From a phage, in NCBI GenBank assembly GCA_038450185.1, contig GCA_038450185.1_4765.1: DNA of 64,000 bases; one strand, written 5' to 3'. The translations under genes were made by a program, and so were the position numbers. The first letter of the stretch is position 1. Each line of letters begins with the position of its first letter. The notes beneath the pieces were generated by a model. That model was not told where the DNA came from. It ran no database searches and was given only the letters and a program-made list of their open reading frames with translations. Below are positions 120 through 42,264 of the stretch, piece after piece.

Positions 120-148
120 ATTATAGGGGATCACCGATCCCCTGTCAA
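120..148 (-). promoter_or_regulatory. sigma70-type early promoter cassette (TTGACA-17-TATAAT), palindromic spacer
   Basis: Minus strand reads TTGACA GGGGATCGGTGATCCCC TATAAT; coordinates span the -10 to -35 hexamers. Confidence 0.6.
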
Positions 149-155
149 CAACTTT

Positions 156-674
156 TTAGTTATTTTTTAATTGTTCATCTTGCAATAATGCAATCACATG
201 CTGGCGATGTTCTTCCGATTGAGGTACACCGAAAAAGTTTGTTTTGTAGAAATACTCTAATCGGTCTTCTCGTGTGCTCTCTTCCATCATGATCGCGGGT
301 AGTCCGAGATTTCGGAAACGTCGCTTTTCTGCTGGCGTAAAATCACTGTAATACAACATAGAATCATCATTACAAGCAATGCTAAACTCATCCTTCATAA
401 AGGAGAATATTGCGTTTAAACGCTGTTTACCGTCCACGATTTCGATCTCATAGCGAGAGCCATCATCAATCTTAGCCATTGCGATAGCACCAACCGGAAA
501 ATCATTAATCAGGTTTTCGATAAACATACGTTTGTTTTCGGTGTCCCATACTAAAGGACGCTGATAATCTGGGTTCATGTTGATATAGCCATCTTCTAAC
601 CATGCTTCGTAAACAGAGATGACAAAGTTTTTAGTATTGGTATAGTAACGGCGTTTAGGCGTTAAACGGTTCAT
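156..674 (-). CDS. DUF262 / ParB-like (GmrS N-terminal type) domain protein
   Basis: ORF track 156..710 trimmed to ATG at 674 with AGGAG SD; motifs DYQRPLVWD, FIENLINDFPVGAI, IVDGKQRL. Confidence 0.5.
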   Translation of the reverse strand: MNRLTPKRRYYTNTKNFVISVYEAWLEDGYINMNPDYQRPLVWDTENKRMFIENLINDFPVGAIAMAKIDDGSRYEIEIVDGKQRLNAIFSFMKDEFSIACNDDSMLYYSDFTPAEKRRFRNLGLPAIMMEESTREDRLEYFYKTNFFGVPQSEEHRQHVIALLQDEQLKNN

Positions 675-675
675 G

Positions 676-1008
676 TTATAGTCTCCTGAATGGATCATCA
701 CGTAAATCAATATCTTTTAAGAACTCATCCCATGAATGGCGGATATTGTTCTTAATTCTCCAGATGAGCGCAGGGATTGAACGCTCTCCCATCTGGAAGT
801 ATGGATCATATGATCCGTATGCCCAATATGCTACTACAATTCCACAATCAGAGCAATAGTATTCTATTTCACTTGCTGGCGACCAAAGTCCATCAATATG
901 ATCGGTGATCTTGCTTTCGATGTTATGGCTATGGCAATCAGGGCAACGGATGCAATGACCTTGTTTGTCGTAATTTGACGTTAGAGAATACTTAAACAAT
1001 CTCATCAT
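676..1008 (-). CDS. small zinc-finger protein (CxxCPDCH ... CSDC)
   Basis: ORF track; ATG at 1008 with AAGGA SD; stop overlaps start of downstream DUF262 gene. Confidence 0.5.
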   Translation of the reverse strand: MMRLFKYSLTSNYDKQGHCIRCPDCHSHNIESKITDHIDGLWSPASEIEYYCSDCGIVVAYWAYGSYDPYFQMGERSIPALIWRIKNNIRHSWDEFLKDIDLRDDPFRRL

Positions 1009-1721
1009 AGATCCTTATTGGCTTCAAATACTGCCTTTGCGAATCCTCGCGGGGTAAGCGACCTGATAGTCTTTGTTCTGGTTCCTTTCCCGCCTAGCTT
1101 AGAATGCTGTTTACTGTACCCTTTATTAATCTGCAAAGGTTTCTTTTCTGGCATTATAAAGCCTTGTCCGGTCCATAAGCAAGTCTTTTTTGGGTACATA
1201 TCACGGGCGGCAATATACTCAGGAAACGTAGGATGCTTATCATCTTCCGGCAAATAACCGCCATATTCCCACGGATGGAACATATAATCAGGCTTACGCC
1301 ACATGCTAGAGATAACGCTTACAGGATTCTCTATCATGTAGGGAACTCCTAGCCATTCACCCAAATAAGCGGTTATTTTAGCTGCCCGTACATCATGAAC
1401 TTGAATCAATGGTCCTTGTCCTCGTTTCTTTCGTTCAAAGTGCGCAGCGCCACTAACAGCTAAATTGGTGCACGGTGGGAATGCAAAGATAATATCCGGT
1501 TTCCCCCATTCAAGGTCCATTGCTCTTTCCAGCCAATTCAAATCAATCCATGTGTTTACATAAGTAATGTTTGGATGTTCAAATCGGGTATTATACTTTT
1601 TGTATGTGCCGTGATCGCCATCGTCAGCATTAAAGCAGATCACCTTATGACCTTCTTTAGCCCATTCTAGCCCCATTATCCCCGATCCGTCAAAGTTGCA
1701 GAATATTAATTTTTGTTTCAT
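1005..1721 (-). CDS. putative compact DNA (cytosine-5)-methyltransferase-like protein
   Basis: ORF track; motif I-like FCNFDGSG, motif IV-like FAFPPCTNLAVSG (catalytic Cys), motif VI-like MIENPV; only about 238 aa, so target-recognition region is short. Confidence 0.4.
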   Translation of the reverse strand: MKQKLIFCNFDGSGIMGLEWAKEGHKVICFNADDGDHGTYKKYNTRFEHPNITYVNTWIDLNWLERAMDLEWGKPDIIFAFPPCTNLAVSGAAHFERKKRGQGPLIQVHDVRAAKITAYLGEWLGVPYMIENPVSVISSMWRKPDYMFHPWEYGGYLPEDDKHPTFPEYIAARDMYPKKTCLWTGQGFIMPEKKPLQINKGYSKQHSKLGGKGTRTKTIRSLTPRGFAKAVFEANKDL

Positions 1722-1963
1722 ATACGCCCCTTTAATCCAACACAGATTTTAGAAGGTTCTTTGCCGTGCCACATTAAGTAAAGTCCGTTAATGCGGCCTT
1801 GTTTTGTATATGATTCTTTTCTGATCTTCTTATAGTGTCGTGTTTCCTCAACTGATTGTTTAGAATACCAATCATAAAGGAAGAGGCACAAAGGCCAACC
1901 ATTAGCGGCCTTAATGCAGTTATTAAGAAATTCCTTATTGCGTTTAATTAATTTTCTTTTCAC
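1718..1963 (-). CDS. hypothetical basic protein
   Basis: ORF track; apparent GTG start at 1963 overlapping upstream stop (GTGA). Confidence 0.3.
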   Translation of the reverse strand: MKRKLIKRNKEFLNNCIKAANGWPLCLFLYDWYSKQSVEETRHYKKIRKESYTKQGRINGLYLMWHGKEPSKICVGLKGRI

Positions 1964-2211
1964 GCTGCCCCCATTGGTTTGATAGTAACAGAATCTAAAA
2001 GACCTTTGTTAGCCAGTTCGCGGCAAGTTTTCAGATCCGCAACTTCCCAGCCAGCCGCAATCAGGTTGTCAATGAGGCTGTTAGCAACTTCTTCGCTCAT
2101 GAAAGAGCACTGTTTGCCGATGGTGTAGCGTACACGCTGTAATTTCAGTTTACGGAAGCCTTTAACGTTCAGGTCTTTAGCGATTTTCTTTGCGGTTTCG
2201 ATGTTAGCCAT
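1960..2211 (-). CDS. hypothetical early protein
   Basis: ORF track; ATG at 2211, GGAGAATCAAA-type RBS, promoter cassette directly upstream. Confidence 0.5.
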   Translation of the reverse strand: MANIETAKKIAKDLNVKGFRKLKLQRVRYTIGKQCSFMSEEVANSLIDNLIAAGWEVADLKTCRELANKGLLDSVTIKPMGAA

Positions 2212-2251: not shown

Positions 2252-2280
2252 ATTGTAGGGGAGTTATCCTCCCCTGTCAA
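2252..2280 (-). promoter_or_regulatory. early promoter cassette (TTGACA-17-TACAAT), palindromic spacer
   Basis: Spacer GGGGAGGATAACTCCCC on minus strand. Confidence 0.55.
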
Positions 2281-6239: not shown

Positions 6240-6268
6240 ATTATAGGGGATCACCGATCCCCTGTCAA
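6240..6268 (-). promoter_or_regulatory. early promoter cassette (TTGACA-17-TATAAT), palindromic spacer
   Basis: About 45 bp identical to the cassette at 111-155. Confidence 0.6.
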
Positions 6269-7377: not shown

Positions 7378-7406
7378 AGTATAGGGGATCGGTGATCCCC
7401 TGTCAA
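7378..7406 (-). promoter_or_regulatory. early promoter cassette (TTGACA-17-TATACT), palindromic spacer
   Basis: Spacer GGGGATCACCGATCCCC on minus strand. Confidence 0.55.
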
Positions 7407-18137: not shown

Positions 18138-18166
18138 ATTATAGCGGGGATTTCTCCCCGCGTCAA
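18138..18166 (-). promoter_or_regulatory. early promoter cassette (TTGACG-17-TATAAT), palindromic spacer
   Basis: Spacer GCGGGGAGAAATCCCCGC. Confidence 0.5.
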
Positions 18167-42235: not shown

Positions 42236-42264
42236 ATTATAGGGGATCGCAGATCCCCTGTCAA
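42236..42264 (-). promoter_or_regulatory. early promoter cassette (TTGACA-17-TATAAT), palindromic spacer
   Basis: Spacer GGGGATCTGCGATCCCC. Confidence 0.55.

Follow-up and report, generated by a model that had tools for sequence, protein, structure and literature searches.

The five-gene unit and its borders

The DNA analysed here, referred to as the window, is a stretch of 64,000 nucleotides from a Krischvirus (RB49-like coliphage; 98.6% identity). It contains three adjoining genes on the minus strand that encode a C5-methyltransferase-like (MTase) protein, a zinc-ribbon protein and a protein with a DUF262 domain, and the RB49 annotation carries the same three coding sequences (RB49p189, RB49p188 and RB49p187). 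A sequence-only reading had placed this trio in a T4-like early region, a setting that was borne out, and had described its stops and starts as overlapping or abutting, which the open reading frames confirmed. The features of the region are listed in Table 1.

Table 1. Genes and promoters of the five-gene unit (window coordinates).
Feature	Position	Strand	Description	RB49 gene	PHROG
Promoter heading the unit	2252..2280	-	PeSL-type early promoter, TTGACA-17-TACAAT with embedded GGGGA..TCCCC palindrome; promoter scan 11/12		
Gene 1	1960..2211	-	83-aa protein	RB49p190	14908
Gene 2	1718..1963	-	81-aa protein	RB49p189.1	7065
Gene 3	1005..1721	-	Predicted Dcm-like orphan C5-cytosine DNA methyltransferase, 238 aa	RB49p189	
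Gene 4	676..1008	-	Four-cysteine zinc-ribbon protein, 110 aa	RB49p188	2993
Gene 5	156..674	-	Stand-alone DUF262 protein (ParB/GmrS-like NTPase-type domain) without nuclease, 172 aa	RB49p187	1583
Next promoter	120..148	-	PeSL early promoter (12/12 consensus) of the following gene, whose ATG is at 83; forms the unit's downstream limit		

The MTase and zinc-ribbon genes share 4 nt (ATGA, 1005–1008), and the zinc-ribbon stop codon (678–676) is one base away from the ATG of the DUF262 gene at 674. The longest reading frame of this last gene begins at a TTG at 710; its 172 residues are counted from the ATG. Each of the three starts is preceded by a Shine–Dalgarno-like sequence inside the upstream gene (AAAGGGG, AAGGA and AGGAG). 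The junctions of the tight string are real, but its size is five genes and not three, the open reading frames at 1960–2211 and 1718–1963 being linked to the trio by 4-nt overlaps too: gene 2 has a GTG start that overlaps the upstream stop, and its own stop overlaps the MTase ATG. Such translational coupling is generic in the window and not special to the trio, with tight same-strand junctions (overlapping or ≤5 nt) making up 33/91 (~36%) in a crude gene call. The GC content of the unit's genes (0.36–0.46) brackets the window mean of 0.40.

PADLOC gives gene 1 a weak hit in the C-terminal portion of the RT_UG35 model (E 2.6e-5). Gene 2, distributed independently of the other genes, occurs in 170 phage records, Dhakavirus and T5-like phages among them. 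It was considered as a conserved partner of the MTase and rejected on this ground, and also because it is unlike the gene upstream of the KarlJaspers dcm.

PeSLs have been described for RB49 and phi1 (PMC2839356). In the window the PeSL pattern gives 6 matches against 0 expected, and four of the cassettes were aligned for comparison. The cassette at 120–148 has its ribosome-binding site and first 15 coding nucleotides (ATGGCTAACATCGAA) in common with the cassette at 2197–2280. PeSLs thus lie at both borders of the unit (2252–2280 and 120–148), and indels among close relatives map to PeSLs, as described for PeSL-bounded modular cassettes (Arbiol et al., 2010). The arrangement does not differ from that of the mobile cassettes of RB49 and phi1, in that identical promoter/stem-loop cassettes flank the five-gene block (PMC2839356; PMC4122927). 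Among the relatives, Krischvirus SAP carries a PeSL duplication of 79 bp downstream of gene 5, and a cassette carrying RB49p186 is present in RB49 and TB34 and missing from the window's phage.

The methyltransferase

The C5-MTase motifs noticed earlier in gene 3, namely motif I (F10-D-G12-S13-G14), motif IV (P82-P83-C84-T85, with the catalytic Cys84) and motif VI (E131-N132-P133), are invariant across 30 homologues, and the predicted fold is that of a C5-MTase. The relationship is borne out by a match to PHROG 757 (E 6e-90) and by 55% identity over the full length (E 3e-91) to the Dcm-like MTase of KarlJaspers (Bas06 gp55, Drexlerviridae), a protein of near-equal length (236 versus 238 aa). 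The length of only ~238 residues had been remarked on; it lies within the family range of 219–259 aa, and the family comprises 1,523 phage records. Its K42 member, 95% identical to the KarlJaspers enzyme, forms 5mC on msDNA and triggers retron Ec86; C82, E128, K175 and K176 of K42 Dcm (catalytic and substrate residues, C82 being the residue mutated in the inactive control) align with C84, E131, K178 and K179 here. The catalytic Cys, Glu and Lys-Lys and a DNMT3-like minimal fold are thus shared by the Drexlerviridae enzymes and the window's MTase. Their genomic settings differ, as the former adjoin helicase genes and the latter lies in a PeSL-bounded early unit.

The protein is further removed from the classical enzymes. 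It is ~90–240 residues shorter than E. coli Dcm, M.HhaI (PF00145) and the DNMT3 catalytic domain and contains no separate target-recognition domain, for which a lower-confidence loop at about residues 186–215 is the only candidate. Motif IV reads PPCT instead of PCQ, and motif VI ENP instead of ENV. The match to Pfam PF00145 is below the cut-off (13.9 bits versus 22) and covers only residues 10–101, and neither single-sequence nor profile searches against the PDB matched anything useful. By homology, gene 3 nevertheless belongs to a known, widespread and experimentally tested phage Dcm-like family and is not a truncated oddity. We infer that the enzyme would be active in Krischvirus; CCWGG is the reported specificity of the K42 orthologue.

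Published modification data bear on this assignment. HpaII and NheI both cut RB49 DNA, and no modified nucleosides were detected in TB34 DNA by HPLC/MS, although the bulk assays on both phages are insensitive to sparse sites, host Dam and Dcm marks having also been missed in TB34. In Krischvirus SAP hmC and glc-hmC have been reported. These results, together with the sub-threshold Pfam score and the lack of an obvious target-recognition domain, could be taken to mean that the gene 3 product does not make 5mC in DNA but is inactive, acts on RNA or transfers another group in cytosine hypermodification, the last of which would bear on the hmC and glc-hmC of SAP. This is improbable given that the catalytic motifs are all invariant and that the protein is 55% identical to one with demonstrated 5mC formation. 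Nor can the MTase explain the modification of SAP, because the coding sequences of all three genes are identical in TB34 and SAP and yet their DNA modification differs. The trio was rejected as the cause of that difference on the same evidence, the 79-bp PeSL duplication being the only local change.

The zinc-ribbon and DUF262 proteins

The protein encoded by gene 4 contains two CxxC pairs (C22/C25 and C52/C55) that are invariant across six homologues, in agreement with its earlier identification as a CxxC zinc-finger protein. Matches to Pfam are confined to sub-threshold zinc-ribbon families. Only the four cysteines are conserved; there is no His/Asn catalytic set, and the DHIDG segment is not conserved among the homologues. 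A hidden HNH/GmrD nuclease was considered and rejected, as the DH is not conserved, the Pfam matches are to zinc ribbons only and a PDB profile search finds zinc fingers and ribbons.

Gene 5 carries the DUF262 motifs reported from the sequence (DYQRPLVWD and DGKQRL): the protein matches Pfam GmrSD_N with 72.9 bits (cut-off 33.2; E 5e-20), and YQRPLVW and DGKQRL are invariant in its family. The predicted fold resembles a ParB N-terminal domain. The model is mediocre because the word-indexed protein search gave few matches (7, and 1 for the zinc-ribbon protein). The protein belongs to a separate clade of short phage and metagenome proteins, here called DUF262-short, with an invariant C-terminal GVPQSEEH motif and ~17,000 detectable relatives. 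About 100 of the nearest relatives carry an N-terminal extension of 110–130 aa. A Rosetta-stone link between zinc ribbon and DUF262 through this extension was rejected, as the extension HMM scores ~0 bits against the zinc-ribbon protein, RB43ORF183c and KP15_145.

An N-terminal DUF262/ParB-like domain with a DGQQR-type motif (DGKQR here) and a YQR..W motif is common to GmrSD, Eco94GmrSD, BrxU and SspE, although the relationship to the DUF262 N-terminus of BrxU is weak (E 3e-4). The gene 5 protein had been compared with the N-terminus of GmrSD-type modification-dependent nucleases, and the comparison stands for that half only: the DUF262 domain is present, whereas the DUF1524/HNH nuclease half of GmrSD-family enzymes is found neither fused to it nor in an adjacent gene. 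No nuclease domain occurs in the protein, which ends at residue 172, or in its 150 nearest relatives, none of which is extended at the C-terminus, and the five proteins of the unit give no Pfam nuclease match at E ≤ 1, HNH and DUF1524 included. Lacking such a domain, the DUF262 protein cannot on its own constitute a GmrSD-type nuclease. The settings also differ, since GmrSD-family enzymes sit in host defence islands and this protein is carried by a virulent phage. Another parallel is GmrS1 of the natural type IV enzyme GmrS1/GmrSD2, likewise a ParB_n-only protein without nuclease, which is needed by that enzyme and works with the adjacent GmrSD2 nuclease (PMC12373910); the Krischvirus unit has no such partner.

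Linkage across phages

The three genes differ in their distribution, with 1,523 phage records for the MTase and 94 and 302 for the other two. They are adjacent only in ~57 Krischvirus genomes, in strictly conserved order; as these genomes are 97–99% identical, they count as essentially one observation. Outside Krischvirus, 0/78 other Dcm-like MTase loci and 0/53 other DUF262-short loci have either partner within 5 kb, and neither an MTase nor a DUF262 gene neighbours the zinc-ribbon homologues of 9g-like, Gorganvirus, Seuratvirus and Suspvirus phages. In the Krischvirus kaaroe an extra 59-aa open reading frame separates the zinc-ribbon and DUF262 genes. The contexts in RB43, KP15 and ST64B differ from that of the trio; a conserved upstream partner of DUF262 in RB43 and KP15 was considered and rejected, the ~110-aa upstream proteins having a hydrophobic C-terminal tail and being unlike the zinc ribbon.

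Fusions of ParB domains to MTases are known, and ParB-like domains may have some loose functional relationship with MTases. In Vequintavirinae a DUF262-short gene lies ~1 kb downstream of an NPPY-class DNA MTase. A general rule of MTase–DUF262 affinity is not supported by this case, as the NPPY-type MTase is unrelated to the one in the window and a Pfam DNA-MTase domain was present in only 2 of 147 DUF262-short neighbours, drawn from 25 clusters.

Interpretation

The three genes are probably independently shuffled accessory genes that form an ordinary string of the hyperplastic region and not a three-part system. They would be part of one early transcription unit of the Krischvirus hyperplastic region, in which five small genes, each an independently mobile accessory gene, are placed between two PeSL cassettes. 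Adjacency and overlapping stops and starts would then reflect compact PeSL-mediated gene shuffling instead of a dedicated three-component machine. Through SAM and Cys84 the gene 3 methylase would add methyl groups to a short DNA site following replication, presumably blunting type II restriction, with the triggering of retron Ec86 by enzymes of its family as a known liability. Gene 4 supplies a small zinc-ribbon protein. Gene 5 appears to encode a minimal ParB/GmrS-type nucleotide-binding domain that is unable to cut DNA as GmrSD does. Its product most likely works alone, binding DNA or protein in an NTP-dependent manner as an early factor in host takeover or anti-defence. Some observations count against this explanation. 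The order of the trio is strictly kept within Krischvirus, although in what is essentially a single case, and the Vequintavirinae place a DUF262-short gene near a DNA MTase. No modification was found in RB49 or TB34 by bulk assays, which would overlook sparse sites. Finally, CCWGG is strongly under-represented in the window (22 sites observed versus 49–66 expected), an avoidance that one would not expect of a site fully shielded by methylation.

Alternatively, the zinc-ribbon protein, DUF262-short or both may offset costs of the C5-MTase, for example as a nuclease-less GmrS-like decoy that poisons host type IV enzymes of the GmrSD/BrxU type active on 5mC DNA, or by blocking Ec86. BrxU cleaves 5mC DNA and has a DUF262 N-terminus related to the gene 5 protein, and the nuclease-less GmrS1 partner demonstrates that domains of this type are able to engage GmrSD proteins. 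Ec86, the retron that Dcm-like MTases trigger, is native to BL21(DE3), yet RB49 is routinely grown on E. coli B, and in every Krischvirus genome the three genes are coupled and transcribed together. We consider this unlikely, however, as neither partner lies within 5 kb of any of the 78 other Dcm-like loci, and none of the 53 other DUF262-short loci is accompanied by the MTase. The similarity to BrxU is, as noted, weak, and the nearest relatives of the DUF262 protein make up a separate clade from phages and metagenomes and do not resemble a host defence protein. That the short DUF262 subfamily is a phage counter-defence factor, perhaps acting with the zinc-ribbon protein, that in Krischvirus offsets the liabilities of the adjacent Dcm-like methylase by either of these routes is distinctly unlikely; if true, it would explain the growth of RB49-type phages on Ec86-bearing E. 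coli B.

The functional trio first proposed, which would combine self-modification with exclusion or anti-restriction, is not supported. As a true three-component system of self-modification and exclusion, in which the MTase marks phage DNA while the zinc-ribbon and DUF262 proteins jointly recognise or attack unmarked or competitor DNA, it could draw on the operon organization and coupling and on DUF262 being the sensing/NTPase half of GmrSD enzymes, but is very improbable with no nuclease domain in the unit (no HNH or DUF1524 in Pfam), no conservation of the His/Asp candidates of the zinc-ribbon protein, no conserved co-occurrence or linkage outside Krischvirus and an inserted open reading frame in kaaroe. 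The trio should not be catalogued as a new system of defence or anti-defence, and in practice the analysis serves chiefly as a correction. In RB49-type phages the short C5-MTase-like gene can confidently be annotated as a Dcm-like orphan methylase, belonging to a family whose activity has been demonstrated and which is known to trigger Ec86; the DUF262-short subfamily is mildly interesting.

Organization of the gene string

The sequence-only reading had described three minus-strand genes with overlapping or abutting stops and starts, encoding a C5-methyltransferase-like protein (MTase), a CxxC zinc-finger protein (Zn protein) and a protein with DUF262 (ParB/GmrS-like) motifs, as a trio with a suggested function in self-modification plus exclusion or anti-restriction. 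The observation is confirmed, and the domain assignments are correct, but there is no support for a functional trio. The three open reading frames are real, the MTase and Zn genes overlapping by ATGA and the DUF262 ATG lying one base past the Zn stop, and a separate Shine-Dalgarno-like sequence precedes each start. Two further ORFs are joined upstream by the same 4-nt overlaps, and the coupled string therefore comprises five genes. Such tight junctions are nothing special in the window, where 33 of the 91 same-strand junctions overlap or are at most 5 nt apart by a crude gene call. In PADLOC the first gene product of the string, of 83 aa, weakly matches (E 2.6e-5) positions 722–785 of the 938-position RT_UG35 (DRT) reverse-transcriptase model, which could reflect a common small domain or chance.

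Coding sequences of the five-gene string and early-promoter/stem-loop (PeSL) cassettes in the window
Feature	Position	Strand	Remarks
83-aa ORF	1960-2211	minus	first gene of the unit
81-aa ORF	1718-1963	minus	
MTase ORF	1005-1721	minus	238 aa
Zn ORF	676-1008	minus	110 aa
DUF262 ORF	156-674	minus	172 aa, from the same ATG as in the RB49 annotation
PeSL	120-148	minus	borders the five-gene unit
PeSL	2252-2280	minus	borders the five-gene unit
PeSL	6240-6268	minus	
PeSL	7378-7406	minus	
PeSL	42236-42264	minus	
PeSL	18138-18166		weaker match

Bases 1–2400 of the window match 64 phage records, 57 of them with at least 80% query coverage and approximately 97–99% identity, all Krischvirus (RB49, phi1, JSE, Sf20, TB34 and others). 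In RB49 the three genes lie immediately upstream of alt and are annotated as ‘DNA methyltransferase’ (RB49p189) and hypothetical (RB49p188 and RB49p187); other matching records already carry the labels ‘Dcm’, ‘putative C-5 cytosine DNA methylase’ and ‘DUF262 domain protein’.

At each end of the string lies a near-consensus early promoter that contains a GGGGA..TCCCC palindrome; these promoters are the PeSL cassettes previously described for RB49/phi1 (PMC2839356). The pattern (TTGACAGGGGA..TCCCCTATAAT) has 6 matches in the window against 0 expected. Both flanking copies also have in common a ribosome-binding site and the first 15 coding nt, ATGGCTAACATCGAA (69–83 and 2197–2211); they are direct repeats and could mediate gain or loss of the entire five-gene block. 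The string is not inviolable within Krischvirus: in kaaroe an additional ORF of 59 aa separates the Zn gene from the DUF262 gene (L012 1221–1400), and in RB49 (L001 3155–3334) and TB34 a 59-aa ORF (RB49p186) with its own PeSL, absent from the window, lies downstream of the DUF262 gene.

The methyltransferase

The MTase matches Pfam PF00145 at its N-terminus only and below threshold (13.9 bits against 22), and PHROG 757 ‘DNA methyltransferase’ from end to end (E 6e-90). The C5-methylase motifs noted earlier hold, FDGSG, PPCT and ENP being invariant in the homologues, but the short length is no oddity: a metagenome-scale search gave a family of 7,299 proteins, nearly all of 220–260 aa, and 1,523 phage records encode a member, among them records of Drexlerviridae, Webervirus and Vequintavirinae. 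Over its full length the MTase is 55% identical (E 3e-91) to the product of the 711-bp ‘Dcm-like C5 cytosine methyltransferase’ gene of KarlJaspers. According to a preprint on phage K42, which is 95% identical to KarlJaspers, the Dcm-like enzyme places 5mC on the msDNA of retron Ec86 (by LC-MS), mutation of the CCWGG site of the msDNA affects defence, the gene is lost in escape mutants, and the mutant C82A/E128A/K175A/K176A is inert. In the alignment their exact counterparts in the MTase are C84, E131, K178 and K179. Taken together, the identity to the KarlJaspers enzyme and the K42 data make the apparently short methylase a normal family member, and homology places it in a recognised, experimentally tested family of known kind.

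The DUF262 and zinc proteins

The proposed DUF262 motifs are borne out by a match to Pfam GmrSD_N (E 5e-20). The DUF262-containing defence models of PADLOC (NsnA, PD-T4-2_A) are matched through their N-terminal parts only, and a seven-homologue profile matches three DUF262 proteins of solved structure, 9jfl, 20yv and BrxU (7p9k), at their N-termini. Of the 16,999 relatives found in an exhaustive HMMER search, the closest 150 are stand-alone proteins of 160–190 aa or proteins of 250–300 aa with an N-terminal extension; none has a C-terminal extension. YQR..VW, DGKQRL and a C-terminal GVPQSEEH are invariant in the subfamily (DUF262-short). The protein thus shares the GmrS-like part of GmrSD but lacks GmrD; as no nuclease domain was found in it, it is by itself no GmrSD-type nuclease. 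DUF262-short represents an uncharacterised version of a domain already known.

The extension, of 110–130 aa in about 100 of the 150 relatives (P0146–P0276), combines a ‘VGDxVxV’ segment, which is KOW/SH3-like, with a conserved linker, ‘G(A/E)NPF’, and one extended relative (P0178) begins with a CxxC..CxxC zinc ribbon. The extension has no sequence relationship to the Zn protein of the window.

The zinc-finger assignment also stands. Six homologues have only C22, C25, C52, C55 and a YWAYGSY(D/E)P motif in common, and Pfam and PDB profile searches returned only generic zinc ribbons and fingers. The Krischvirus protein alone has, at its C-terminus, a tail of about 17 aa. An HNH site at the DHIDG segment was rejected, this segment not being conserved in the six homologues.

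Separate distribution of the genes

Each gene has its own distribution, with the MTase in 1,523 phage records, DUF262-short in 302, the Zn ribbon in 94 and the 81-aa ORF in 170. DUF262-short has other neighbours in RB43, KP15 and ST64B, and the Zn ribbon lies amid unrelated small genes in 9g-like phages, Gorganvirus, Seuratvirus, Suspvirus and a Klebsiella siphovirus. In IMG/VR, 55 loci in 27 clusters encode DUF262-short; a Dcm-like MTase or the Zn ribbon lies within 5 kb of it in none but the two Krischvirus loci. Likewise, only the two Krischvirus loci among the best 80 Dcm-like MTase loci contain DUF262-short or the Zn ribbon. A Pfam scan of 147 neighbours (150 aa or longer, no more than 4 kb away) from 25 non-Krischvirus clusters detected DNA-methylase domains of any kind in two, both N6_N4_Mtase. 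These distributions, the linkage confined to Krischvirus and the kaaroe insertion argue against the functional trio.

In two Vequintavirinae phages, of Mydovirus and Henunavirus (L016 806–3013, L017 896–3016), DUF262-short follows, at a distance of about 1 kb, the genes for a small NPPY-type MTase and a ClpB-like protease, and two small ORFs occupy the interval. This enzyme is unrelated to the MTase of the window; the loci represent a second, independent MTase–DUF262 neighbourhood with another MTase class.

Possible function and DNA modification

Transcription would start at the PeSL early promoter (2280–2252) and run through the five coupled genes. By analogy with its K42 orthologue, the MTase would methylate cytosine C5 at a short site in phage (and host) DNA, which would confer partial protection against cognate type II enzymes at the risk of activating retron Ec86. 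DUF262-short would work independently, most likely binding a nucleotide and a DNA or protein partner as other ParB/Srx domains do.

HpaII and NheI cut RB49 DNA, and HPLC/MS of TB34 DNA showed no modified nucleosides; as the marks of the dam+ dcm+ host (DH5alpha) were not reported either, only bulk modification is excluded. Within the window GAATTC (0 against approximately 17 expected), CCSGG (4 against 30), CCWGG (22 against 49–66) and GGCC (32 against 74) are strongly avoided, so the phage relies on site avoidance too, whereas GATC, TCGA and GCWGC occur as expected. CCWGG may not be the target of the Krischvirus MTase.

RB49 is routinely propagated on E. coli B, and in BL21(DE3), a derivative of that strain, a native Ec86 retron responds to expression of Dcm (K42 preprint). 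Ec86 is triggered by Dcm-like methylases from the family to which the RB49 enzyme belongs. No account was found in the literature of how RB49-type phages avoid or tolerate Ec86; the MTase may differ in specificity, the host may be shut off rapidly, or the phage may have a counter-measure. The idea of a counter-measure underlies a counter-defence reading of DUF262-short, a reading of low probability.

A 2026 paper reported hmC/glc-hmC, of unknown pathway, in SAP and canonical cytosine in TB34, to which SAP is 99.96% identical. The five-gene unit is no explanation for this difference, its coding sequences being identical in the two phages (5.7-kb region compared). Locally, the two phages differ notably only in an extra 79-bp PeSL copy of SAP, directly downstream of the DUF262 gene (L014 1836–1914 against TB34 L002 1835), and in four 1–2-nt differences downstream of the unit, three of which are single-T insertions in SAP.
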